A stretch of 64,000 bases of DNA, taken from assembly GCA_037481815.1 (NCBI GenBank), contig JBBFKX010000001.1, forward strand, positions 96,001-160,000, written 5' to 3'. The DNA is from a candidate division WOR-3 bacterium. Lineage in GTDB: Bacteria > Hydrothermota > 32-111. This document shows positions 12,727 through 30,519 of the stretch, piece by piece. Below the pieces are notes generated by a model. The model saw nothing but the letters and a program-made list of their open reading frames with translations, searched no databases and was not told the origin of the DNA. A program made the position numbers and the translations under genes. Numbering within the stretch: position 1 is the first letter of the stretch; the number at the start of each line of letters is the position of its first letter.

Positions 12727-12975
12727 ATGGCTTTTGAAAGGGAAAAAGTAAAATCTTTAATATTTACAACGAACTCTGAAATTCGAGGTTTTGTTCATAT
12801 ACCGCCGGGTGGAAGGTTGACAGATTTTTTGAACAATATCGCAAAACCTTTCATCCCTGTTACGGATGCTGAAGTTAGAACCTCTGATGGAAGAATATTT
12901 AAAACCGATTTGATGCAGTTGAACAAAGATTTTATTATTGTGATCATTCCCGAAGAGGCGATGGAAAAAGAGTGA
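12727..12975 (+). CDS. Small conserved hypothetical protein (DUF6812-like)
   Basis: GGAGG SD; RLTDFLN..FIPVTDA motif. Confidence 0.6.
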   Translation: MAFEREKVKSLIFTTNSEIRGFVHIPPGGRLTDFLNNIAKPFIPVTDAEVRTSDGRIFKTDLMQLNKDFIIVIIPEEAMEKE

Positions 12976-13710
12976 TCATTCAGTATACTTTTTGATTAGA
13001 TCGTTTATATCCATCTCTTTACCTGCTTTTATCTCAAAAACTGAATCATCGATTTTTATATTGATATCTATTTTTTGCGTTTTCATCTCCATGATCTTTT
13101 GACCGTCTAAGGTTGCTGTTATTAAAAAAGGCATATAGTATTTTGAATCGATCTGTTTATAATCACTCATCACCATAACAACAGTGTCCTGATTTTCATT
13201 CTGATAATCAACAGTTTTAACAAGGAACAGGTTCTTCTTATCGATAAAAATCAGTGAATTGTTTAATTTCTTTTGGAAAACATAACAGTTATCCTGATCT
13301 TTTAAATATTTATACTCTTCACTCAGTTGTTTCCACCAGAGAATTCCTTTGTCCTGAATATAATTTTCTTTTTCCTTTTCTGTTAATTTAACTTTTCCTA
13401 CGATTGGATTCACAAGAAAAATTTTTTCTCCATCGTTTATTATAGTTGTTGCCATCTGTTCAACATCATCAATTTCAGATTTATCAGGGATTATGTCCAA
13501 CTTCATCTTTTTGTCTTTTACCCAGATGTATGTTGTCATTGGAACTTTCATATCGTTACTAAAAAATATACTCTTATATGTTGCCTCCATACTTTTTATC
13601 TCTGAATATGATGAATATTTTTGTTCAATCTTTTGTAAAATCTCATCTTCTGTCTCAGCATGGAAAATGATTGCGAGAATTACTATTGTGAAAAATAAAA
13701 ATTTTTTCAT
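12976..13710 (-). CDS. LolA-like outer-membrane lipoprotein-sorting family protein
   Basis: Signal peptide; NDGEK, IDK..LVK, NIKIDDSVF motifs. Confidence 0.75.
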   Translation of the reverse strand: MKKFLFFTIVILAIIFHAETEDEILQKIEQKYSSYSEIKSMEATYKSIFFSNDMKVPMTTYIWVKDKKMKLDIIPDKSEIDDVEQMATTIINDGEKIFLVNPIVGKVKLTEKEKENYIQDKGILWWKQLSEEYKYLKDQDNCYVFQKKLNNSLIFIDKKNLFLVKTVDYQNENQDTVVMVMSDYKQIDSKYYMPFLITATLDGQKIMEMKTQKIDINIKIDDSVFEIKAGKEMDINDLIKKYTE

Positions 13711-15095
13711 AACAACTCCTTTTCAAGTGATTCAATTTTAGAGATAAAAATTTTATTATCAATACTTTTAAAGTATTTTTTTATTTTTTGAAAATCTTTC
13801 TCTGAAACAAATTTTTTATTGGTTTTTGAAAAGTATGTTAAAAGTAACAGATATGATCTGTAAAAGTTGAAATTATCTTTTATCTTTTTATAGATTTTTA
13901 TACCTTTTTCAACCTCATTTATTGCTTTTTCAAAATCTTTTTTTGCAGCAAAAAATTTAGATTTTGTAACCAGAAATCTTGCCTTCTCTTTTTCAACATT
14001 GAATTTCTTTAAACCTTTTTCAGATAAATTCAAAAAGAGTTGTGCTTTTTTTAAATTTTTTTTCTTTAAAAAAAGTTCAGTTGAAAGATTCTGATACCAT
14101 AAAGTCAGGTCTGGAATGTTCACTTTTTTCACATAAAGCAAAACCTGTTTTAAGATTTCTTCAACCTTTTCTAACTCTTCAAGTTCAAAATAAAGATATC
14201 CAATATCGATAAGATTTATTCCCGATCTCCTTAGATCTTTTATTTGGTTTGCAATTTCGTTGGATTTTTTGAGAAACTCAATCGCCTGATCGATATTTCC
14301 TTTATATGTTTTCGCCGTTGCAATATTGTAGTAAGAGAGTGTTAACCCGTGTTTATCGTTTATCTCTTCCTGTATACTTTTTGCTTGCTCAAAAAGTTCG
14401 AGTGCTTTATCGTATTCTCCCATATCAAGGTAGATGTTACCAATGTTCGTGAGGTTTCTTGCTTTTTCAAGTGGTGAACCGATCTTTTCAAGTAATTCTT
14501 TAGTTTTTAAAAAATATTCGAGTGCTTTTTTGTAATCGTTCAAATTCTCATAGACAACGGCAATATTATTATAAGTCACAGCGATGCTTTTTGGCTCATT
14601 GAATTTCAATTTTATTTCAAGTGATTTTTTGTAAAACTCGAGTGCTTTTTGGTTGTTTCCTAAATAGTAATAGATTGACCCGATGTTGTTGTATCTTCCA
14701 CTTATACCTTCAAGTTGTTTTAATTTTTTTGCAATTTCAAGGGATTTTAAATAATATTTTAAACTTTTTTTATAGTCACCTGTTAAGTTGTAAATGTTGC
14801 CCAATCTGTTATAACATTTTGCAAGATCGTATTTGTCTTTTCTTTTTTTTGAGAGATTCTGTGCTCTCAAAATCAAAACTTTTGATTTTTCATAATTTGA
14901 AAGTGAAAAGTATATTTGACTCTCCTGAACCAATATATCTGTAAGGAGTTTCAGATCATTGAATTTTTTTATCTCTTTATGTGCTTCGTTAATATCTTTC
15001 AAAGCACTTTTGTTATCAGAAATCAGCGAGTAAACATCTGACCTTAAAATCAGTGATTTTATATACAGTTCTTTTGGATCTCTACCTGCTAACAT
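13707..15095 (-). CDS. Tetratricopeptide repeat protein (free-standing; overlaps the upstream cyclase-ATPase by 14 nt)
   Basis: Repeated YNNIG.IY...G.Y.KAL.Y..KSLEI units. Confidence 0.9.
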   Translation of the reverse strand: MLAGRDPKELYIKSLILRSDVYSLISDNKSALKDINEAHKEIKKFNDLKLLTDILVQESQIYFSLSNYEKSKVLILRAQNLSKKRKDKYDLAKCYNRLGNIYNLTGDYKKSLKYYLKSLEIAKKLKQLEGISGRYNNIGSIYYYLGNNQKALEFYKKSLEIKLKFNEPKSIAVTYNNIAVVYENLNDYKKALEYFLKTKELLEKIGSPLEKARNLTNIGNIYLDMGEYDKALELFEQAKSIQEEINDKHGLTLSYYNIATAKTYKGNIDQAIEFLKKSNEIANQIKDLRRSGINLIDIGYLYFELEELEKVEEILKQVLLYVKKVNIPDLTLWYQNLSTELFLKKKNLKKAQLFLNLSEKGLKKFNVEKEKARFLVTKSKFFAAKKDFEKAINEVEKGIKIYKKIKDNFNFYRSYLLLLTYFSKTNKKFVSEKDFQKIKKYFKSIDNKIFISKIESLEKELL

Positions 15096-17751
15096 TTTTC
15101 TTTAACTTTTTATAGGAATCGATAGCCCTTGTAAAATATTTTATAGCATCCTCGTTTGCGTATATCTTTTTTGCCTTTTCTCCTGCATGATAAGAATAAA
15201 GAAGTGACTTCTCATAATTTTTTGCCTGAAAATAATGGTGTGATAAGAGTTCATAATATTCATCAATGTTTTTGTTATACCTTTCCTCAATAAAGTTTCC
15301 TATTCTGTTGTGCAACTCCTCTCTTTTTGCAAACGATAATGTTCCGTAAGCAACTTCCTGTGTTAGAATATGCTTAAAATAGTAAGTGTTTTTACCGGTT
15401 TCACTTTTTTTTATAAGATCAAATCTTTCGAGATTTTTTAATGACTCTTCTAACAATTTTTTGTTCTCATAGATGTTTTCAAGAATATCAAGATCAACCT
15501 CTCTGCCTAAAACAGATGCTTTTTGTATCACATCTCGATCTGTGAAATCGAGAGTATCTATTCTCGATTGGATTATTGACTCAACACTTTCAGGAAGCAC
15601 AAGTTTCTCTATATCACCTTGAAATTCCCATTGATTTTCTTTTTCCTGAATGTAACCCTGTTCGATCAGTGATTTCACAAGTTCCTCAATGTAGAATGGG
15701 TTTCCCTGAGATTTCTTTATGATCAATTCTTTAAAATTTTTGGAGATGTTTTCAATGTTTAGCAGATTTTTAACGAGTTTTAAAGAGTCCTCTTTTGATA
15801 ACTCTTTTAAAACTATTTTTTCTGTTTGGAATTTTTTTTCTGCACTCTCAAGATCCTTTGATGGTCTGTAAACGAGTGTTAAAAGAATTTTGTGATTTGA
15901 AATTTTGTTTGAAACAAAATTGAAAAGTTCAAAAGATATAGAATCAGCCCAGTGGAAATCCTCGAGTATAATATTTAAAGGTTTTTTCGTTGAGAGTTCC
16001 AATAGGAGTTTACTTATAATATCAAAAGTTTTTTGTTTTTTCAGTTTTGTGTCAAGATATTTGAGATTTGACTGATCGGTGAAAGTTACTCCTAAAAGTT
16101 CACCAAATAAGGCAGACCATTCTTTTAATTCCTGATCCAAATTTTCAAGAGATTTTAAAATCTTTTGCTCTTTTGTTTCATTATCATCGCCTGACTTTAA
16201 ATCGAAAATTTCCTTCAAAATTTCGATCCATGGATGGTATGAAAAAGAACTTCCATAGGAAAAACATTCTCCTTTGAAAATCAAAAATTCATTTTCAGAA
16301 GAAATTTTTATCACCTCTTCAACAAGTCGTGATTTCCCGATACCAGGTTCACCACTTATTGAAAGAATGTATCCATTTCCATCTTTAACTTTTGAGAAAG
16401 TTTGTTTAATTCTTGTTATCTCTTCATCTCTTCCAATTATTTTTTCTGTCTGTGATATCCATCTTGTGATATTCTCTTTTTTCAATTCCTTTTTATTTTC
16501 GAGGATAAATGTCTTTTCTTTTTTTTCTTTTCCTTTCAGTTCAAGATCTCCAAAGTTTTTAAAATTGAAATAATGGTATGTTTTGTTAAAAATATTTTCA
16601 CTTACCAGAACTAGGCCATTTTCAGATTTTGCCGCAATTCTTGCGGCAAGGTTCACTCCATCTCCAAGAACAGTGTATTCGTATCGTTCTTTTCCTCCGA
16701 TTATTGAAACGAAAACATAATCAGAATTCACGCCCGCTTTGAGTTTTGAAAAATCTATCCTTGAATCGTGTTTCAAATCGTTTAAAAATAGCAGAGATCT
16801 AATTTCAGAGTCCTCATAGGTTTTGGGAAATCCAAATATTATTATAAATCTTTCTCCATCTTTATATGGATCTATACTTGTTATTATACCCTCATATTTT
16901 TCACAGTGTTCTTTAATAATCTCATAATAGTTTTTTAAAATCTGTAAACTTGTTTCGTGTTCGTTTTCGTAATCTAGTTGAGGAAGATGGATGAATATTA
17001 CGGAAATTTTTCTATGTTCACCATCTTTACTATCGATGGTGTTTTTAAATTTTAACCTTTCCTTCAGCCAGAGAGGGATATAATCATCTAAAATGTTTTC
17101 ATGAAAATTTTTCTTATACTGATTTATCTGAAATTTTTTGATCTTTTTTCTTCTCAAAACTTTATAATAATCACCTTCAGATTCGAAATCAAAATTTTTT
17201 ACATCTTTAAAATCGGTTGTAGTTATAATTTCACCTTTTTTAGCGATGTCTGATAGTTCTATAAGTTTATTTAATTGCCTTCCACCTGCAAAAAAGGTTG
17301 ACTTTAAATCAAAAATATGCACCTTCCCATAAACGAGTGAAATATGAACTCCGATTTTGAACTTTCCATTTTTAGTCCTAACATTCTCATTCTTTTTCAC
17401 ATACTTTAAAATCTCATAAGAACAGTACAAACTTCTCTCTTTTGAATCGATCGGAAGGTTGTCATCCTCTTTGAAAATCGCAAAAAACGCATCTCCAGCA
17501 AATCGATAGATGTCCCCACCATACGAATATGTTATTTTTACAAGGTTTTCAAAGTATGAGTTTAAAATTTTGTTAACCTCTTCCGATCCCTCTTTCCCAA
17601 GTTTTGAAAGTTTTTCACTCATCGCTGTGAAACCGGAAATATCAACAAAGATTGAAGAGCAGTTAAAAGAATCAAAAATTTTATTTTTGTTTTTCAGTTG
17701 TTTGAAGATATCGGGGACAAAAAGATTAAAAATATTTTTGTTTTCTCCCAT
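15082..17751 (-). CDS. Soluble-adenylyl-cyclase-like protein: two class III cyclase domains + STAND/AAA ATPase, ending at its first TPR helix pair
   Basis: FVDISGFT..RFAGDA; GDGVNLAARI; Walker A GEPGIGKS; Walker B ILEDFHWAD; GNPFYIEE; YYFKHILTQEVAY; GEKAKKIYANEDAIKYF. Confidence 0.9.
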   Translation of the reverse strand: MGENKNIFNLFVPDIFKQLKNKNKIFDSFNCSSIFVDISGFTAMSEKLSKLGKEGSEEVNKILNSYFENLVKITYSYGGDIYRFAGDAFFAIFKEDDNLPIDSKERSLYCSYEILKYVKKNENVRTKNGKFKIGVHISLVYGKVHIFDLKSTFFAGGRQLNKLIELSDIAKKGEIITTTDFKDVKNFDFESEGDYYKVLRRKKIKKFQINQYKKNFHENILDDYIPLWLKERLKFKNTIDSKDGEHRKISVIFIHLPQLDYENEHETSLQILKNYYEIIKEHCEKYEGIITSIDPYKDGERFIIIFGFPKTYEDSEIRSLLFLNDLKHDSRIDFSKLKAGVNSDYVFVSIIGGKERYEYTVLGDGVNLAARIAAKSENGLVLVSENIFNKTYHYFNFKNFGDLELKGKEKKEKTFILENKKELKKENITRWISQTEKIIGRDEEITRIKQTFSKVKDGNGYILSISGEPGIGKSRLVEEVIKISSENEFLIFKGECFSYGSSFSYHPWIEILKEIFDLKSGDDNETKEQKILKSLENLDQELKEWSALFGELLGVTFTDQSNLKYLDTKLKKQKTFDIISKLLLELSTKKPLNIILEDFHWADSISFELFNFVSNKISNHKILLTLVYRPSKDLESAEKKFQTEKIVLKELSKEDSLKLVKNLLNIENISKNFKELIIKKSQGNPFYIEELVKSLIEQGYIQEKENQWEFQGDIEKLVLPESVESIIQSRIDTLDFTDRDVIQKASVLGREVDLDILENIYENKKLLEESLKNLERFDLIKKSETGKNTYYFKHILTQEVAYGTLSFAKREELHNRIGNFIEERYNKNIDEYYELLSHHYFQAKNYEKSLLYSYHAGEKAKKIYANEDAIKYFTRAIDSYKKLKKNVSR

Positions 17752-17825
17752 ATTGATATTTTACAAAAAATATCGAAAAAATCAAATATGTTGTAATAAT
17801 TTTAACAAATTATATAATACTTAAA

Positions 17826-19565
17826 ATGAAAAGAAGAAAAGAGAACTATTTTCAAAAGATATTTTTTTACATAAAAAAAGAAAAACTATTTTTCATATTA
17901 GGTTTTATCATCACAATCCTGGTTTCGATTTCAAGGCTGGTAGATCCACTTATCCTTGCGCATATAGTTGATAAAACGATCCCTTCTGGAAGTGTTTCAG
18001 ATCTATTGAAATATTCGCTGTTTTTTGTTGGTGTTATCGTTATTTCGGGTTTTCTAACATACATTCAAAATTTAATCTTTGCCCGACTCGGTTTGAAACT
18101 CATAACATCTTTAAAAATGGATCTTTTTTCACATATGTTAAAATTACCGATCAGTTTTTTTGATACAAGGAAGGTTGGAGAGTTGATCGCAAGGGTTGAG
18201 AGTGATGGCGAAAGGGTAAAGCAACTATTTTCAAGTCAGATGATAATGATCTTTGGGAACATTATATTCTTTATAGGAATGATAACAGTTTTGATGTTAA
18301 AAAACAGTTTTGTTACTTTAATTCTGCTTATTCCATTATCGTTTGTTTTTATTTTTTCGATTTTATTGATCAGATACCTGACCAAATTTTTCAAAAAGAT
18401 CAGAGAACTTTACGCTGAACTTTCTGCACAGTTAACGGAATACATTCAGGGAATGATGGTGATACAACTTTTTAACAAAGAAGAAAAAATAAAAAATATT
18501 GTCGAAAAGAAATCGAAGGAAAAATTTAATGTTGAAACGAAAACATCGTTCATAGAATATTCGTTCTGGAGTTTACAAACATTTTTTGTTGAAACACTTT
18601 TTATCATAATAGTGATTTTACTCATATCGCCGAAAATTTTTTCAGGAATTTTGACTGTTGGAACACTTGTGATATTTATCCAATATGGATTGAGATTGTT
18701 TGAACCGATTATGCAGATCGCAGAAAATTTCAATATGTTTCAAAGGGCTTTTGTTTCACTACAAAGGATTTTTAACATAATAGAAAATCCAACAGAAGAA
18801 TCGTTCTCAGGTCATAAAAAGATATCGAAACTTGAACAGGATATAGTTTTTGAAAATGTTTCTTTTGAATATAAACAGGGTGAACAGGTTTTAAAAAATA
18901 TTTCGTTTAAAATAAAACAGGGTGAAAAAGTTGCTTTCGTTGGACCGTCTGGAAGTGGAAAAACAACGACAGCAAATCTGCTACTTGGATTTTATAAAAA
19001 CTATACAGGTAAAATTTTAATCGATGGGGTTGAATTAAAAGAGTATGACTTAAAATCTTTAAGGGAACTTTTTGCTTATATACCACAGGAAGGAATAATT
19101 TTCCCGGGAGATATTCTTGAGAATGTGAGATTATATGATGAAGAAATTTACGAAGATGTTGTAAAAAAATCATTAAAAGATGTTTATGGAGAGACACTGC
19201 TTAGCGGGGAGTTTGGCATCTACCGAGAGATCAAAGAGAAAGGCAGAAACATTTCGGCAGGTGAAAAACAGTTCATAAATCTTGCAAGAGTTTTAGTGTT
19301 TTCAAAAGCATCGGTTGTGATAATGGATGAAGCGACATCTTCGATAGATGAAATGACTGAAAAAAGGATAATAAGTGCACTCGATAGAATTCTTGAGAAT
19401 AAGACCTCGATCATAATCGCACATAGATTATCAACAGTCATAAATTGTGATAGGATTTTTCTTTTCGATAATGGAAACATAATAGCATCAGGAACACATA
19501 AGCAGTTGCTGGAAAAATCGAAAGAATACCAAAATATTGTGAAGCAACACATTTTAAAGGACTGA
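17826..19565 (+). CDS. ABC exporter, fused permease/ATPase (heterodimer half)
   Basis: 6-TM domain; GPSGSGKT; ISAGEKQ; MDEATS; IAHRLS. Confidence 0.92.
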   Translation: MKRRKENYFQKIFFYIKKEKLFFILGFIITILVSISRLVDPLILAHIVDKTIPSGSVSDLLKYSLFFVGVIVISGFLTYIQNLIFARLGLKLITSLKMDLFSHMLKLPISFFDTRKVGELIARVESDGERVKQLFSSQMIMIFGNIIFFIGMITVLMLKNSFVTLILLIPLSFVFIFSILLIRYLTKFFKKIRELYAELSAQLTEYIQGMMVIQLFNKEEKIKNIVEKKSKEKFNVETKTSFIEYSFWSLQTFFVETLFIIIVILLISPKIFSGILTVGTLVIFIQYGLRLFEPIMQIAENFNMFQRAFVSLQRIFNIIENPTEESFSGHKKISKLEQDIVFENVSFEYKQGEQVLKNISFKIKQGEKVAFVGPSGSGKTTTANLLLGFYKNYTGKILIDGVELKEYDLKSLRELFAYIPQEGIIFPGDILENVRLYDEEIYEDVVKKSLKDVYGETLLSGEFGIYREIKEKGRNISAGEKQFINLARVLVFSKASVVIMDEATSSIDEMTEKRIISALDRILENKTSIIIAHRLSTVINCDRIFLFDNGNIIASGTHKQLLEKSKEYQNIVKQHILKD

Positions 19566-19566
19566 T

Positions 19567-21312
19567 ATGGAACATATTAAATGGGTCTGGCGCGTTTGGA
19601 AAGAGGAGAAAAGGTTTCTATTCCTTCTTTTTTTTATGACTTTGCTTTCAACATTTGTAACAGTATCCTATCCATTTGTTTTTAAAATTCTGTTTGATAA
19701 CCTTAATAAAATTTTGAATTCAAAAATAGAAGTAAAAAATCCGATGGTAGAAATATACAGAATTGTATATTTTCTTCTCGGTGTTGGGATCGTTAGAATT
19801 TTTTCAGGGATGTATCCAACATTGAGAGCGTTTATGAATTACAGATTTGAACATAAACTTAGAATGAAATATTTTTCATATATACTCAAAAAGGACTATT
19901 CGTTTTTCAACAACTTTAGAACAGGAGATCTTGTTACAAGATTGACAGAAGACCTGTCAGATTTTCCAAAGATATGCTGGTTTTTATGTTCGGGAATCTT
20001 TCGAGCACTCGATTCATCTTCAAAAATATTCTTCTGTCTTTTTGTGATGTTTTTCTTGAACTGGAAACTTGCGCTGTTATCAATTCTACCGATACCTTTG
20101 ATGGTTTTAATCTTTTATATGTTAAGCAATAAACTCTATCTTTCGTTCAAAATGAATCAGGAAGCGATAAGTGAGATCAACAATCAACTTGAAATGAGTT
20201 TCTCAGGAATCAAAATAATTAAGTCATACAACAAAGAAAACCAGTACAATAGGTTTTTTGAAAAAGCATTGAATATAAGGATGAGAACCGAAATCGATCT
20301 GATTAAACTCAACTCGTTGATAAATCTTGTTTATGAATATATTGATAGGATCGCCCAGATTGTTGTGATACTTTATGGTGGAATGCTTGTTTTAAAAGGT
20401 GAAATCTCTGTTGGAACTTTTTATGCGTTCTATACTTATCTTTCGATACTTATCTATCCTGTTCTTGACCTCCCACAACTTTTTGTGTCGGGAAAGCAAT
20501 CTTTTGTTAACATCGATCGACTCGAAGAGATAAAGGATTATCCGGTAAAGATCTATAAATCAAACAAAAATTTAAAAATTGATAAAATCGAAAATATTGA
20601 ATTTGAAAATGTTTCGTTTGGATATGATGAGAAGAATCTGATCCTTGAAAACCTTTCGTTTAAGGTCAATAAAGGAGAAAAGATAATAATTGTTGGACAG
20701 GTTGGATCAGGTAAATCAACTCTTTTAAATCTACTCTCTGGCTTCCTTCTCCCAAGGTCTGGAAGGATACTGATAAACGGAATACCTTTTGAGGATATCG
20801 ATTTAAAAAGTTATCGGGAAAAGGTTGGATTTGTTTTGCAGGAGCCATTGTTATTCTCTGGAACATTGAAAGAAAATATTTTGTTTGGGGTTGAAGATTA
20901 TGAGAACGATTATTATGAAAGAGTTTTAAAAATGGTTAATATGAAACAAGAGATAAAAAAGTTTGTTTTAAAGGATGAAACACTGGTAGGGCAGAGGGGA
21001 ACATCGTTAAGTGGTGGGCAAAAGCAGAGAATCTCGATCGCAAGAGCGCTGATGAAAAAACCAGAACTCCTTATTTTTGATGATATCACATCATCACTCG
21101 ATACTGGAAACGAAAAGAGGTTATGGGAATCACTTACAGAATTTTTAAAGGAATCGATAACAATCGTTGTGTCTCATAGATTGGCAACGATCAAATATAT
21201 GGATAAAGTGATATTTTTGAATGATCGAAGAACAAAAGGATGTTGTTTACACGATGAACTTTACAAAAACGATTTAGAGTATAAAATTTTTATAGACAAG
21301 GAAAGAGATTGA
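19567..21312 (+). CDS. ABC exporter, fused permease/ATPase (degenerate half)
   Basis: GQVGSGKS; LSGGQKQR; degenerate Walker B FDD; SHRL. Confidence 0.92.
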   Translation: MEHIKWVWRVWKEEKRFLFLLFFMTLLSTFVTVSYPFVFKILFDNLNKILNSKIEVKNPMVEIYRIVYFLLGVGIVRIFSGMYPTLRAFMNYRFEHKLRMKYFSYILKKDYSFFNNFRTGDLVTRLTEDLSDFPKICWFLCSGIFRALDSSSKIFFCLFVMFFLNWKLALLSILPIPLMVLIFYMLSNKLYLSFKMNQEAISEINNQLEMSFSGIKIIKSYNKENQYNRFFEKALNIRMRTEIDLIKLNSLINLVYEYIDRIAQIVVILYGGMLVLKGEISVGTFYAFYTYLSILIYPVLDLPQLFVSGKQSFVNIDRLEEIKDYPVKIYKSNKNLKIDKIENIEFENVSFGYDEKNLILENLSFKVNKGEKIIIVGQVGSGKSTLLNLLSGFLLPRSGRILINGIPFEDIDLKSYREKVGFVLQEPLLFSGTLKENILFGVEDYENDYYERVLKMVNMKQEIKKFVLKDETLVGQRGTSLSGGQKQRISIARALMKKPELLIFDDITSSLDTGNEKRLWESLTEFLKESITIVVSHRLATIKYMDKVIFLNDRRTKGCCLHDELYKNDLEYKIFIDKERD

Positions 21313-21668
21313 AAAAAGGGGGAATAATTTTTTTTAAAACAAAAAATCTTGAAGAAATAAAAAAATTTTATATAGAAAATTTTAAAATGGAAGTTTTTAT
21401 CGATCAAAAAAAGTGTGTGATTTTGAAATATGAAAATCTTTTGCTTGGTTTCTGTGATTCTGATGAGGTCGAAAATTCTGGGGTGATAACATTCTTTTTC
21501 GAAACGAAAAACGATGTTGAAAAAATGTATGAAAAATTAAAAGATTATGTTTCAGTTGAGTTGAAAACGAACACATACTTTAAGATATACCATTTTTACA
21601 TCAAAGATCCTGAAGGTAGAAGTGTTGAGATACAACATTTTCTCGAAAAAGATTCTGATATTTGCTGA
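21309..21668 (+). CDS. VOC/glyoxalase family protein
   Basis: FFKTKNLEEIKKFY and FYIKDPEGRSVEIQ motifs; TTG start. Confidence 0.85.
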   Translation: MKKGGIIFFKTKNLEEIKKFYIENFKMEVFIDQKKCVILKYENLLLGFCDSDEVENSGVITFFFETKNDVEKMYEKLKDYVSVELKTNTYFKIYHFYIKDPEGRSVEIQHFLEKDSDIC

Positions 21669-21670
21669 TT

Positions 21671-22789
21671 ATGAAAAAAGATTTAGATATCATTTATATT
21701 GAAACATTGAGAGCAAGGGCACAGGTTTACAATTTGCTCGGGAAAACTGATCGAGCACTCAAAGATATTAAAATCGGAGAAAAAATCGCAGAAAAAAAGA
21801 ATCTTATGAGTAATCTTGCAAAACTCTATATGGAGAGAGTTGTTTCCTATGAGATTTTAAACGATTTTGATAATATGATGGTTTATGCGAAAAAGTCATC
21901 TGAACTTTTTAAATCAATAGGTGATTTAACGGGGTATGCAAACAGTTTGAATTCCTATGCGATGTCACTCGGGAGTAAAGGTGAGTATGACAAAGAACTT
22001 GAAATCCTGCAGGAGTGTTATTCTATTCTTGTAAAACAGTATCAAATAAGTGAGAATCAAGAAAAAAGCAGAGCAGGGTCCGCTTTTGGATTCGTTTTGA
22101 ATAATCTTGGTTTTGTTTACAAGGTAAAAGGTGATAATGAAAAATCTTTGAATTTTTATTTCGAATCTCTGAAAGTGAGAACAGAGATAGAGGATAAGTT
22201 AGCACAGGCACAATCTTTGAACAATATAGGAATGATCTACGCAAGGAATAAAGATTATGATAACGGAATTTTATATCTTGAGAAAGCAAAGGATCTTTTG
22301 AAAAAGATCGGTGAAAAAAAGATGTTATCATCAATAGTTTATAACCTTGGACACATTTATCTTTTTAAAAATGATTTTGAAAGAAGTTTAGAACTTTTTT
22401 TTGAATCGCTTCCGATTAAACGGGAAATTTTTGATCATTCAACCGAGGTTTTAAATCTTGCTTCTATAGGAGTTGTTTATGGAAAAAAAGGAGATTATGA
22501 AAAATCGATCAAATATTTAAAAGATGCGATCAGGTTAAGGATCAAAATAAATTTTTATCAGAATATCGATAAAAACTTTGTTTCACTTTTTGAAAGTTTT
22601 AAAGAAATAAATAGAATGAAAGAGTCATTTAGATATTTTTTAAGATTATTTGAAAAATTTCTAAGAAAAGAAAATAAAGAAATCGCAAAAATATTGTATG
22701 AAATGATTTTAAAACACAAAGATGAAAAAGATCTAACAGAAAAAGTTATCTCGTTTGAGCAAAAGTATAAAAATATTTTCTCTCAATAA
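21671..22789 (+). CDS. Tetratricopeptide repeat protein, paralog of 13707..15095
   Basis: LNNLG/LNNIG/YNLG TPR units; N-terminus aligns with that of the 13707..15095 protein. Confidence 0.88.
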   Translation: MKKDLDIIYIETLRARAQVYNLLGKTDRALKDIKIGEKIAEKKNLMSNLAKLYMERVVSYEILNDFDNMMVYAKKSSELFKSIGDLTGYANSLNSYAMSLGSKGEYDKELEILQECYSILVKQYQISENQEKSRAGSAFGFVLNNLGFVYKVKGDNEKSLNFYFESLKVRTEIEDKLAQAQSLNNIGMIYARNKDYDNGILYLEKAKDLLKKIGEKKMLSSIVYNLGHIYLFKNDFERSLELFFESLPIKREIFDHSTEVLNLASIGVVYGKKGDYEKSIKYLKDAIRLRIKINFYQNIDKNFVSLFESFKEINRMKESFRYFLRLFEKFLRKENKEIAKILYEMILKHKDEKDLTEKVISFEQKYKNIFSQ

Positions 22790-23364
22790 AATTTCATACT
22801 TCCAAGAATCTTATCAAGTATTTTTTGTTGATCTGTTGAAATAAATTCATTTTCAACTATATAGGTTATTACAATATCGTTTGCAAAATATATCAAGGAT
22901 TTTGTATATGTTGTGTAAATCTCATCCTCGTATTCATAATCATAACCAAGCAAAAAATCAAAATAGTAAAAACTTTTTCCATTGATCGTTTTTATCGATT
23001 TTTTCACATCATCGATAAAATATCCCTGATTTTCAAAAGATGTTGCGAACTCATATTCAATAAAAGACTGGATCGAATCAATCTCTTGAGCGGTTGATTT
23101 TGAAGGATCTTTTGTAAAATCGTTTAAAACACCTTTTCCAATGAAGAACCAGAACTTATCACTTCCAGAACTTTCTTTTTCTGGTGTCCATATCTTTTGT
23201 ATCAGTTTATCGTTTGTGGCTTCTTCGAATTTCCAGTTCTTTGGAACTGTTACTGACATTTTTAAATCTTTTAAATCATAGGTCTTGTAGGTTATTGTTG
23301 TTTCCGAGGAGATAAAAAGAGAAATTGTGAACACAAAAAGTAAAAAAAGAGTATATTTTTTCAA
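22783..23364 (-). CDS. Hypothetical exported protein
   Basis: AAGGAGG SD before TTG 23364; signal peptide; ends ILGSMKFY (PsbP/DcrB-like ending). Confidence 0.65.
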   Translation of the reverse strand: MKKYTLFLLFVFTISLFISSETTITYKTYDLKDLKMSVTVPKNWKFEEATNDKLIQKIWTPEKESSGSDKFWFFIGKGVLNDFTKDPSKSTAQEIDSIQSFIEYEFATSFENQGYFIDDVKKSIKTINGKSFYYFDFLLGYDYEYEDEIYTTYTKSLIYFANDIVITYIVENEFISTDQQKILDKILGSMKFY

Positions 23365-23424
23365 GAGCCCTCCTTTTTTAAAACTTAACAGATCGAAACA
23401 AAAAGTCAACAAAAATTTTTACTA

Positions 23425-23452
23425 TTGACAACCAGTAAAGTTTTAATATAAT
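23425..23452 (+). promoter_or_regulatory. sigma70 promoter of tRNA-Asn
   Basis: TTGACA-16nt-TATAAT. Confidence 0.8.
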
Positions 23453-23484
23453 AAATTTCAAAAATTGGTATTTACATTTGGCAT

Positions 23485-23560
23485 TCCTCGGTAGCTCAGT
23501 CGGTAGAGCGAGTGGCTGTTAACCACCAGGTCGGGGGTTCGAGTCCCTCCCGGGGAGCCA
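23485..23560 (+). tRNA. tRNA-Asn(GTT)
   Basis: 76 nt; acceptor TCCTCGG/CCGGGGA; D arm GCTC/GAGC; anticodon loop CTGTTAA; T loop GGTTCGAGTCC; encoded CCA. Confidence 0.97.
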
Positions 23561-23626
23561 AGTTTAAAAATTTTACTCATTACCTTTTACCTTGATTTCC
23601 TCTCATTTCTTACTATCATTTAAAAT

Positions 23627-24517
23627 ATGAAAAATTTTTTTAATTATATTTTTATCACTTGGAAAATTTCGGATGAAATTGTTACTGATAATAAAAAAAG
23701 AAAAAAATTAAAATATGTAGTTTTATTTGTTTCATTTTTGCTGGTTATTCTGCTTGGGATCATCGATCACAAAACCGGATTTGAAGTATCTTTCTCAATT
23801 TTCTATTTGATCCCTATATCCCTTTCAATTCTTTTTGGTGGTTTTTATGGTGGTTTCATTATTTCGGTGTTTTCAGCTGTAGTATGAGCTCTGGCTGATG
23901 TGTACAGTGGACACCAATATAAAAATTTTATGATTCCAATATGGAATGCTATAATGCGTTTTGGATATTTTTCTCTCCATTCATTTTTTATGTCCCGTTT
24001 TCTTGAAATGTATAAAAAGGTAAAAAAAGAATCGTTGACTGATTCATTAACTGGTACTACAAACAGCAGATTTTTTTACATTCTGTTTGAACAAGAACTT
24101 CTGAAGGCGAAAAGGAACAAAAAACCTTTTACACTCGCTTATATAGATCTTGATAACTTTAAATCTATGAACGATACTTTCGGACATCTTGCAGGTGATT
24201 CGCTTCTTATAAAAATTGCACAAACAATAAAGAAAAATATCAGGGAAACAGATATATTCGCAAGAATTGCTGGTGATGAATTTGTATTACTTTTACCAGA
24301 AACTGATTATAACCTCTCAGATAATATTTTAAAAAGATTAAAGGATGTTGTTGTGCTTGAAGTTAAAAAGAACAATTATCCTGTTACATTGAGTATTGGT
24401 GCTATAACTTTCAATAGGTTTGATTATGAGATAAATGAAATGATCAAACAAACAGATGATTTAATGTATAAAATTAAAAGGGAAGGAAAAAATAACATTG
24501 AACATTCATCAATGTAA
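23627..24517 (+). pseudogene. Membrane-anchored GGDEF (diguanylate cyclase-like) gene interrupted by an in-frame TGA at 23885-23887
   Basis: ORFs 23627..23887 and 23900..24517 are in the same frame (GTA GTA TGA GCT CTG GCT GAT GTG). DSLTG, DLDNFK.MND.FGH.AGD, AGDEF motifs. Confidence 0.75.
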
Positions 24518-29156: not shown

Positions 29157-30029
29157 TTAAAGTTCGTTAAAAACTCTTAATCTGTTGCGCTTCAATAATC
29201 TTTCATCGTTTGGAACGATAAACTTCTTATTTCTTGGAGGAAATCTTCCATTTGTAAAACCCGCAATAATAAGTAAAAATCCAAAAATGAGTATCAAGAA
29301 AGAAGGTAAAATACTTAGAAGTAAAGACCAATTACTAAGATTCAACGAGAAGATGAAAGAAAAAAAGCCAGATTTTTCTGATTTTGGTAAAGTGTTCCAA
29401 TTATCAAAAATAACTTTAATAATCGATAGTCCAAGTAATGTTAATATTACCCCTGATATGAATGGTATAAGATGAAATTTTTTTCTTCTTGAAGTTGAAA
29501 TAGCGTCAAAAGGTAAAATTTCAGAATTTATGATTGGAGGTAACTCATCTGCGACTATTGTAAATTTGAAGTCACTCACAGATGGAGTGCCATTTATCAA
29601 AATTTTAGAGATAAAAAACTCACCACTGTTTAACAAAGGAAAAACAAATTTGATTTCATTTTTTTCTTTATTAAAGTTAAGATCTATTTTTCGACCTTCT
29701 GGAAATACATAGATAACACTTGAATCCAATATCTCAAAATCAGAGGGTAATTTCAAAGTTAATGGTTCAATAATATCCCTTATCGATCTGTCTCCTGTAT
29801 TTGCTATCAGAAATTGTATTTCATATAAATTGTCAATTTCTTTACCCTGATATTTAATTTGAAGATCTTTTTTGACATCCTTATCCATCCCTTCAAAAGG
29901 AGATGAATAGAATTGTATGTACGGGGTTAGCGATTTTTTTAAATTTTTTCTGTAAAAGTAAATTGAAACAAGTATTGTTGAAAATACTCCAATAACTATT
30001 CCTAAAATCGAAATTAAAAAATTATTCAT
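29157..30029 (-). CDS. Hypothetical membrane protein
   Basis: GAGG SD; N-terminal TM, soluble beta-rich domain, two C-terminal TMs. Confidence 0.7.
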   Translation of the reverse strand: MNNFLISILGIVIGVFSTILVSIYFYRKNLKKSLTPYIQFYSSPFEGMDKDVKKDLQIKYQGKEIDNLYEIQFLIANTGDRSIRDIIEPLTLKLPSDFEILDSSVIYVFPEGRKIDLNFNKEKNEIKFVFPLLNSGEFFISKILINGTPSVSDFKFTIVADELPPIINSEILPFDAISTSRRKKFHLIPFISGVILTLLGLSIIKVIFDNWNTLPKSEKSGFFSFIFSLNLSNWSLLLSILPSFLILIFGFLLIIAGFTNGRFPPRNKKFIVPNDERLLKRNRLRVFNEL

Positions 30030-30071
30030 TTTGACCTCGATTGTTTAATCAAAAACAGTAAAATGTTTCGT

Positions 30072-30422
30072 TCAATTTTTTGCCTCTTTTATCGCAAATC
30101 TCTCTTTTTTGCTTCCCATAATATTACATGTAGCGGAAACTTCAATTAGAGTATCCGTAGGAGAGTTTCGAAAAAGAAAATATGCTTCTTCAAACTCCTT
30201 TGTTGACTGCTTGTAGAATTTTTGTTCAATCGATTCTTTTCCATTAACAAAAAGTTTTATAGATTTTATGTAATGCGCAGCAGGAGAAGGTACGGAATGA
30301 AAAACTTTCACATAGACAAGGTCGATTGAATCATTAAAAGTAATTTCAATTTTTGATGGACCATGTGCAAAGAGAAAAATTGAAAGAATTGTTAATGAAA
30401 TAATCAGGATGATTTTTTTCAT
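30072..30422 (-). CDS. Exported desulfoferrodoxin/superoxide-reductase-like protein
   Basis: Signal peptide then AHGP, FHSVP..AHYIKSI, ATCNIMG, echoing the SOR His/Cys ligand pattern; AAGGAG SD before ATG 30422. Confidence 0.65.
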   Translation of the reverse strand: MKKIILIISLTILSIFLFAHGPSKIEITFNDSIDLVYVKVFHSVPSPAAHYIKSIKLFVNGKESIEQKFYKQSTKEFEEAYFLFRNSPTDTLIEVSATCNIMGSKKERFAIKEAKN

Positions 30423-30519
30423 ATTCACTCCTTTCTTTATTAATAATTTTATTCTATAGTATGAAATTTTACAAGAAAAAACATATTGACATCTAGAAAT
30501 TAGAACTTAATATTCTTAT

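Follow-up and report, generated by a model that had tools for sequence, protein, structure and literature searches.

Gene fission in a cyclase-STAND protein of candidate division WOR-3 bacteria, with putative TPR arms in trans

We analyzed a window of 64,000 nucleotides (nt) from a candidate division WOR-3 bacterium (GenBank assembly GCA_037481815.1, contig JBBFKX010000001.1, positions 96,001 to 160,000 of the forward strand; coordinates below are those of the window). Here a cyclase-cyclase-ATPase gene stops after its first helix pair resembling a tetratricopeptide repeat (TPR), the TPR array is a separate gene, and a second TPR gene on the other strand starts with the same N-terminal hairpin; the first-pass annotation had described this layout, correctly in every detail. 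Sequence comparison strongly supports the conclusion that the split is an old, conserved gene fission, and not an error or a recent pseudogene. We suggest, with a probability of about 0.7, that the genes encode a two-gene (here probably three-gene) form of the bacterial receptors resembling soluble adenylyl cyclase (sAC), usually one polypeptide, with TPR arms supplied in trans.

The core gene and its TPR arms

The core subunit is encoded by an open reading frame (ORF) on the minus strand at 15082..17751 (889 amino acids, aa; stop TAG), and comprises cyclase domains C1 and C2, a STAND NTPase, a winged-helix region and a first TPR-like hairpin. A Pfam scan of this ORF gave Guanylate_cyc (PF00211) at 71.2 bits in two stretches (cut-off 21.9), AAA_16 at 75.8 bits (cut-off 32.6) and NB-ARC at 27.5 bits (cut-off 23.5), and no TPR match. 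C1 (17197..17706; approximately residues 16-185) carries the sAC metal-binding motifs FVDISGFTAMSEK and FAGDA, and its residues 19-155 align with residues 30-168 of 4oya. C2 (16498..17019; residues 245-418) is the best PF00211 stretch, and is without the Asp pair but keeps GDGVNLAARI with its Asn and Arg. The STAND NTPase (AAA_16/NB-ARC; 15916..16440; residues 438-612) has the Walker A motif GEPGIGKSR. The polypeptide ends ...AGEKAKKIYANEDAIKYFTRAIDSYKKLKKNVSR*, its stop lying right behind the single helix pair (15085..15231; residues 841-889) that we propose as a docking surface.

Directly downstream of the core on the same strand, TPR1 (P0002; 13707..15095; 462 aa) starts MLAGRDPKELYIKSLILRSDVYSLISDNKSALKDI and matches TPR_12 at 154 bits, with further TPR models above their cut-offs; its N-terminal hairpin, KELYIKSLILRSDVYSLISDNKSALKDINE, is encoded at 14985..15074. 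TPR2 (P0003; 21662..22789, plus strand; 372-375 aa, from ATG 21671 or TTG 21662) belongs to a different lineage. Begun at ATG 21671 it starts MKKDLDIIYIETLRARAQVYNLLGKTDRALKDI, with its N-terminal hairpin, DIIYIETLRARAQVYNLLGKTDRALKDIKI, encoded at 21686..21775; it matches TPR_12 at 94 bits and further TPR models above their cut-offs, while TPR_14 on residues 14-34 scores 22.9 bits, slightly below the 23.5 cut-off. Both arms are thus proteins of tandem 34-residue repeats, and align collinearly from residue 1/2 (27% identity over 288 aa, E 3e-26).

The core stops at the same place in its relatives. Among 41 related genomes, the best core matches (43-93% identity) sit in open frames of approximately 890-960 aa (short-core matches in G001, G002, G004, G006, G007, G008, G010, G020, G026, G032 and G038, numbered as in our genome set; the G007 frame, 858 aa, meets a contig end). 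In a large protein collection, 40 of the 44 clusters listed at 40% identity or more are 865-966 aa long and four are fused, at 1226-1244 aa; all 40 short clusters stop 8-24 residues past TRAI in YANEEAIEFFTRAI, which is almost invariant. Of 151 genomes sampled evenly across the phylum, 21 carried a short orthologue (at least 43% identity; frames 858-980 aa, the shortest clipped by a contig end), covering our family codes f1, f4, f6, f20, f21, f24 and f25, with f19 adding a 39% short form, and three carried a fused one (G009, G012 and contig C62 of G050). The first-pass annotation had proposed asking whether orthologous cyclase-ATPases stop at the same point, and these counts answer that they do. 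The sources of the homologues label them candidate division WOR-3, and their database protein names are generic.

An arm gene usually accompanies the short core in an operon-like arrangement. A TPR ORF begins within approximately 150 nt downstream in 15 of the 17 loci that have downstream sequence (the window, G001, G002, G004, G006, G007, G010, G020, G099, G131, G150, G138, G050, G062 and G073, the last with its TPR spread over two frames); three further short-core loci, outside the 17, stop at a contig end. As a separate observation, in four f4 genomes (loci L055, L056, L057 and L058, the L057 copy clipped by a contig start) a conserved gene of 550-574 aa precedes the core; its product has a signal-peptide-like start and ends ...YPESVEAELSRG..., without a free-TPR hairpin match, and it has no counterpart in the window.

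Core and arms have been parted and rejoined repeatedly. In a core tree (63 rows, LG+G4, quick search, support by the Shimodaira-Hasegawa-like approximate likelihood ratio test, SH-aLRT), the window's core falls in a clade of 45 rows with support 100, of which 41 are short and four fused; its sister is all fused except for a small short group, P0048-P0051, with a different tail. Three of the fused proteins, P0028, P0035 and P0041, are sister to the window's pair (support 99), and are nested in the split clade. A second tree (33 rows) places G009 and G012 with P0047 and the short cores of G006 and G010 (support 100), and at least five changes of state are required. The arm of G009 and G012 is sister to TPR2 (SH-aLRT 95) and is TPR2's best match outside its own genus (E 2.8e-34); pairwise, it aligns with 308 TPR2 residues at 32% identity (E 9e-41, compared with E 3e-26 for TPR1 against TPR2). 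The P0047 arm groups with G011_C12 and the downstream TPRs of G006 and G007 (support 99), and the free TPR beside the G050 core is, from Met1, 67% identical to residues 899-1236 of the fused P0028. Judged by these pairings, at least three arm lineages known as separate genes in other genomes also occur covalently attached to cores of one clade. Because the same arm lineages occur both fused and free, this constitutes the classical fusion argument that the separate proteins cooperate; it covers TPR2's lineage and the core-adjacent arms of other genomes, with TPR1's lineage outside it.

Two further observations stand apart. G050 (loci L087 and L088) holds two members of one core clade, a split 927-aa core with two tandem free TPRs and a fused 1233-aa gene. 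The P0048-P0051 group is an independent, arm-less form: its proteins end approximately 35 residues past the YAN motif in a different helix (...GLLEKIWKRIKSEL), and at L059 (G020:C14) and L060 (G032:C82) a membrane protein gene, not a TPR gene, follows a core of this type.

Fused relatives show where the cut falls. They read through the break point (P0028 as ...YANEEAIEFFKRAIESYEILERDERSMDKKQKKELYIKALEG..., G022 as ...YANKDAIRFYTRAIESLDKTIKNRAVKEIECLKKRAEVLNLIGENKKAILDL), and an AlphaFold2 model of the C-terminal 546 aa of fused G009, made from a 25-row alignment (mean predicted local distance difference test, pLDDT, 90.8; predicted template modeling score, pTM, 0.78), has a mixed helix/strand region that is winged-helix-like, followed by regular 17-residue helices. 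In this model the break point is a 6-residue loop (193-198, block pLDDT 74) between the AIEFF helix and the RASVY helix; the predicted break is thus in a short loop of one continuous helical solenoid. From this position, the N-terminal hairpin of the free TPRs is the second repeat of the ancestral solenoid, and the fission ran between repeats 1 and 2. Across 41 short cores no window is more conserved than the final 30 residues (0.91; mean 0.705), the catalytic and P-loop regions included, whereas the same window is ordinary in 14 fused outgroup proteins (0.66 against 0.60). On the arm side, each of the hairpin residues R, G and D is retained in approximately 96% of 24 non-redundant free TPRs that share approximately 20% identity overall. 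This pattern suggests that the seam came under special constraint once the pieces were separate, the hairpin's part in this being modest.

Possible arm sharing and predicted cyclase output

Several arms may share one core. Multiple free TPRs occur at the core loci of G006 (two in tandem and one divergent upstream), G008 (two upstream), G010 (one on each side), G099 and G050 (two in tandem each) and G138 (three). Their common hairpin starts 8-55 residues into the open frame, with the consensus xxxYxxALxxRAxVYxxIGxxxxALxDI. A 30-column hidden Markov model (HMM) of this hairpin, trained on 10 free TPR proteins, all from other genera, was run against the 5811 open frames of at least 60 aa in the window's genome, G000, and found only TPR2 (32.9 bits) and TPR1 (24.8 bits); the next frame scored 11.4 bits, and internal repeats of TPR1 and TPR2 at most 8 bits. 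By this measure the hairpin is common to the two N-termini beyond chance. An 85-column N-terminal profile searched against 1.84 billion representatives gave 48,589 matches at E 0.001 or better, the best of them long generic TPR proteins with 5-17 matching stretches; swamped in this way, the search is uninformative on how many proteins start with the hairpin. Whether the shared motif is generic to TPR proteins, the doubt the first-pass annotation itself had raised, thus receives a divided answer: in G000 the short model singles out the two N-termini, but the hairpin is TPR-like and the longer profile unspecific.

Free arms also track the short core between genomes. Of the 21 short-core genomes, 18 have free hairpin TPR frames (E 1e-6 or better), between one and four each; five of the other 130 genomes (G011, G016, G022, G070 and G086) also have such frames. 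In G011 the core is clipped by a contig end, in G016 and G022 the frames are fused genes clipped by contig starts, and in G070 and G086 the matches lie in frames of 670-976 aa. Thirteen short-core genomes lay outside the profile's training; 10 of these have a free hairpin TPR, and seven have two or more. In G003 and G005, of the window's own genus, core and free TPRs are both missing.

Arm content differs between close relatives as well. G002 has a third free hairpin TPR gene (322 aa; L061:2776-3744), between a nitronate-monooxygenase-like and a hydrolase gene, whose product is sister to the core-adjacent TPR of G004 in the TPR tree (support 99); in its place the window, at 29157..30428, encodes a membrane protein of 290 aa and another protein of 118 aa. 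Members of the genus therefore differ in their TPR genes.

The comparisons show that an old WOR-3 gene fission cut the receptor in the short loop past its first TPR-like hairpin, and that the arm gene, usually directly downstream of the core, has multiplied into several lineages per genome, TPR2 being one of them. For the separated parts we suggest the following mechanism. The first hairpin of a free TPR would stack onto the last hairpin of the core, restoring the solenoid of the fused relatives, and a ligand in the TPR groove would control nucleotide exchange or oligomerization of the STAND module. The state of that module would in turn set the output of the C1-C2 cyclase, probably cAMP, to be read by the three proteins with cyclic nucleotide monophosphate (cNMP)-binding domains that G000 encodes; different TPR subunits would give one core different input specificities. 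Of these steps, we infer from comparative sequence data the docking, the exchange of arms on one core, the ligand gating of the STAND switch and the use by TPR2 of the same core as TPR1.

In the strongest form of this proposal the protein is a combinatorial receptor, with paralogous TPR sensors competing for or exchanging on a single docking hairpin of the core, so that one second-messenger output integrates several inputs. We hold this form tentatively, at somewhat less than even odds. If it is true, the repeated fission and re-fusion of differing arms is the evolutionary trace of modularity, and this would be the first STAND/NLR-type protein known with bare interchangeable sensor arms in trans. 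That one core serves several TPR sensors had been proposed in the first-pass annotation, with the shared motif as a docking helix: the number and co-occurrence of free TPRs, the conserved core tail and the three lineages found both free and fused fit the first part, but the hairpin is no special docking invention.

The most serious competing explanation is that TPR1 may pair with the core while TPR2 and the other dispersed TPRs are independent scaffolds, their hairpin kept by common descent and not for docking. TPR2 has orthologues in two congeneric genomes only, and ABC exporter and glyoxalase-like genes share its gene row; the hairpin exceeds the remainder of the protein only modestly in conservation; copies of an arm gene once split off would begin at one repeat boundary anyway; and short cores without TPRs exist. 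We nevertheless consider this explanation unlikely: free hairpin TPRs are almost confined to short-core genomes, and two congeners lack both; TPR2's nearest kin outside the genus are arms fused to a core of the same clade; the hairpin R, G and D are nearly invariant across lineages at approximately 20% identity; and TPR2 is under purifying selection.

Several points weigh against arms in trans and should be set beside this evidence. The short sister group P0048-P0051 (913-979 aa) has a different tail and, in the loci checked, no TPR neighbor, indicating that cores of this kind may function without any arm; in the f4 genomes G026 and G038 other genes lie downstream of the core. No strong free hairpin TPR was found in three of the 21 short-core genomes, G038 (87% complete), G048 (77%) and G073 (99%), the last having only a weak and apparently broken one. 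The hairpin is itself TPR-like, and its window in the free TPRs scores 0.48 against an average of 0.41, not above the central repeats. Training rows of the profile came from eight genomes later counted, and the genomes are related, so that the co-occurrence counts are not independent. Finally, the trees are quick LG+G4 searches with SH-aLRT support only, TPR alignments are error-prone and the TPR tree is poorly resolved at depth; our reading of arm lineages uses only well-supported pairs and pairwise scores.

On the enzyme side, human sAC far outscores every other solved structure against a profile of 32 cores (E 1.2e-44, 155 bits, compared with 93 bits for the second-best family), and a single alignment spans both catalytic domains (profile 12-431 against chain 15-462). 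FVDISGFT, AGDA and VNLAAR align with sAC residue for residue (GDGVNLAARI against VNLAARM), and D37, D87, N367 and R371 are invariant in the 32 cores, as are G470, G472, K473 and S474 of the Walker A GxxGxGKS. As in class III cyclases generally, the Asp pair of C1 would bind metal, and the Asn and Arg of C2 would be catalytic. The core thus has the two domains with complementary catalytic residues that characterize a tandem class III cyclase of the sAC type, and is expected to be an active single-site C1-C2 cyclase whose product is probably cAMP. It also has the P-loop with helical and winged-helix modules of a STAND NTPase, without the repeat array in the same polypeptide. A match to the TOMM kinase/cyclase fusion model (TIGR03903) reaches 255 bits against a cut-off of 705.75, and covers the C2-NTPase part only.

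The first-pass annotation had offered defense as one possible role; the form considered here is an NLR-like anti-phage system, with a Pycsar-like cyclase whose cyclic nucleotide would trigger an effector. STAND-TPR proteins are reported to be common phage sensors (Nature 2026, PMC13581612 / 10.64898/2026.01.04.697583), the TPR arms here are diversifying and variable in copy number, and PADLOC places PycC models on the cyclase domains at E 1e-12 to 2e-4 (best 1.3e-12, with stretches at 16-185), alongside generic TPR matches. These PycC matches do not, however, rise above the general similarity among class III cyclases, and in structure the best relative is sAC. The adjacent cNMP-activated effector of a Pycsar system is absent, in that no effector family, nor any other defense gene, was found among the window neighbors. 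Six family members in a genome of 1.58 Mb and a core strongly conserved across families are the pattern of housekeeping signaling, not of a mobile island. A defense role therefore appears very improbable, and this part of the first-pass annotation is not supported.

Junctions, host genome and neighboring genes

The junction between core and arm differs from genus to genus. In the window the core tail reads ...YEKSLLYSYHAGEKAKKIYANEDAIKYFTRAIDSYKKLKKNVSR, and the ATG of TPR1 lies 14 nt within the core ORF in the +1 frame, inside aaagaaaaATGttagcaggTAG, giving an overlap between core stop and TPR1 start at 15082..15095 (minus strand). The 14-nt overlap is common to the window and the two closest congeneric genomes; the stop is TAG in the window and TAA in the congeners. 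In G004 the stop is TAA, with the ATG 19 nt on in another frame, and a third frame occurs in G006; the stop of G007, G010 and G020, TAG or TAA, is in frame with the ATG 9-24 nt on, and G010 has two in-frame stops. Because stop codon, frame and spacing vary between genera, the fission is not one inherited defect. All three genes are under purifying selection: among the three congeners (synonymous divergence, dS, 0.5-0.8), the core has a ratio of nonsynonymous to synonymous divergence (dN/dS) of 0.06-0.08, TPR1 one of 0.10-0.14 and TPR2 one of 0.09. Contigs of three public runs span the junction with 0 differences (X1 and X2, possibly the source, and X3, from another study; the comparison is at the level of contigs). 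The conserved stop, the varied junctions, the purifying selection and the agreeing contigs together reject a sequencing error, a recent pseudogene and a conserved recoding signal, and the earlier judgment that the split is genuine holds.

A single fused protein could in principle still be made by programmed frameshifting or stop-codon read-through at the junction, given that the frames overlap in the window and that in G007, G010 and G020 the TPR frame runs on in frame past the stop (in G010 with a further TAA before the TPR start). The window would need a +1 shift, and no slippery heptamer for a -1 shift leads into its TPR frame; genera vary in how the two frames relate, in stop codon and in spacing, with two in-frame stops in G010, and each TPR ORF has its own start codon, 9-24 nt past the stop or overlapping it. 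Varied junctions and separate TPR starts leave no possibility of a conserved recoding signal; on this comparison between genera we rejected programmed frameshifting and read-through as a conserved mechanism, and regard recoding as extremely improbable.

We give almost no credence to an artefact or recent pseudogene, in which a gene that is normally fused would have been interrupted by a single-base error or mutation in the junction's A-run (aaagaaaaatg): deleting one A of the run would merge both frames, four paralogs in the same genome are fused and another, on contig C3, is truly broken, but the layout recurs in two congeneric assemblies at dS of approximately 0.5 with a different stop codon, the contigs of three runs are identical at the junction, the orthologs of 21 genomes and 40 database clusters share the stop point with differing junctions, and dN/dS is 0.06-0.14 for both halves.

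The host genome, G000 (1.58 Mb, approximately 31% G+C, 95% complete), holds six members of the cyclase-STAND-TPR family, comprising four fused paralogs of 1163-1294 aa, the window's core as the only short one, and the sixth paralog, on contig C3 at approximately 106195-110183 (locus L082, outside the window), which is broken into frames of 744 and 606 aa. A 10-bp deletion in the winged-helix region causes this last break, and two congeneric genomes carry the ortholog unbroken, as a 1344-aa frame; in contrast to the conserved split of the core gene, this is a frameshift confined to one lineage (or an assembly error).

Between the promoter region of the core and TPR2, at 17826..21668 on the plus strand, lie genes for two ABC exporters (579 and 581 aa) and a 119-aa glyoxalase-like protein. 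TPR2 is the last gene of this row, which is divergent from the core; the three context genes show no sign of membership in the cyclase-TPR system, and their order is kept in G002. Other neighbors in the window are a LolA-like gene and a GGDEF gene. A promoter and terminator scan of 12800..23600 gave numbers similar to those of shuffled sequence (58 promoters against 47.5 +/- 7.1, and 5 terminators against 4.4). The GGDEF diguanylate cyclase gene (23627..24517, plus strand) has an in-frame TGA at 23885-23887 where the G002 ortholog has Trp (SAVIWALAD against SAVV*ALAD), leaving an 86-aa membrane part and a 205-aa GGDEF part; TGA is an ordinary stop elsewhere, and here is probably a nonsense mutation or an error.

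Comparison with known systems

As a fused protein this architecture is known. Chloroflexus and Anaerolineae, for example, have bacterial sAC-like cyclase-STAND-TPR proteins of 1200-1450 aa in one polypeptide; these and the four fused paralogs of G000 have the same domain order as the core and its arms, are 26-34% identical across the whole core, and have the pre-array YAN..A hairpin in common with it. Unlike in these proteins, the array here is one or more separate genes, and the core tail and arm hairpin have near-invariant residues specific to the clade; the outgroup fused examples compared do not retain R and D at these hairpin positions. The literature we searched contained no description of a split cyclase-STAND protein with free TPR subunits. 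The methods of PMC13581612, in the part available to us, describe an analysis of adjacent sequences for "split proteins" of Avs7/Dsr1. Within the literature searched, the conserved split form with free TPR subunits is new.

Such a form has practical and evolutionary uses. How a STAND arm restrains the nucleotide-binding module, and lets go of it when a ligand binds, is usually studied within one large polypeptide that is hard to handle, whereas a natural two-piece form allows one to add or omit the arm, to exchange it or to alter a defined interface by mutation, and to read the effect directly as cyclase activity. The recurrence of fission and re-fusion at one loop also offers a clean case for how split genes stay functional. 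If several arms do share one core, this would be a simple route to broadening the input range of a signaling ATPase without duplicating the enzyme.

Human ADCY10 in its full-length form, sACfl, represents the closest relative of solved structure: both of its catalytic domains align with those of the core, and it is one polypeptide. According to the part of PMC12802110 available to us, a STAND domain with a P-loop is predicted after C1-C2 in sACfl, no regulator specific to sACfl was found in that study, the role of its C-terminal part is open, and a trans-acting repeat subunit is not described there. At the level of fold, the arm of the fused relative G009 resembles LGN/Pins TPR superhelices (E 2e-12) and the PH0952-type STAND-TPR protein (PDB 6mfv; E 4.7e-9, template modeling score 0.42, 519 columns). 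These likenesses, at 14-20% identity, are silent on the ligand, and the model is consistent with the TPR arm being a groove-type binder of peptides or proteins.

A functional likeness would be to the NLR pairs of sensor and executor, such as NAIP-NLRC4 and the sensor and helper NLRs of plants, in which both partners are complete NLRs and co-oligomerize. No immune role is indicated here, unlike in those pairs. What the two would have in common is a single signaling ATPase serving several interchangeable sensors; in the WOR-3 protein, however, a repeat array on its own would act as the sensor and complete a truncated solenoid.

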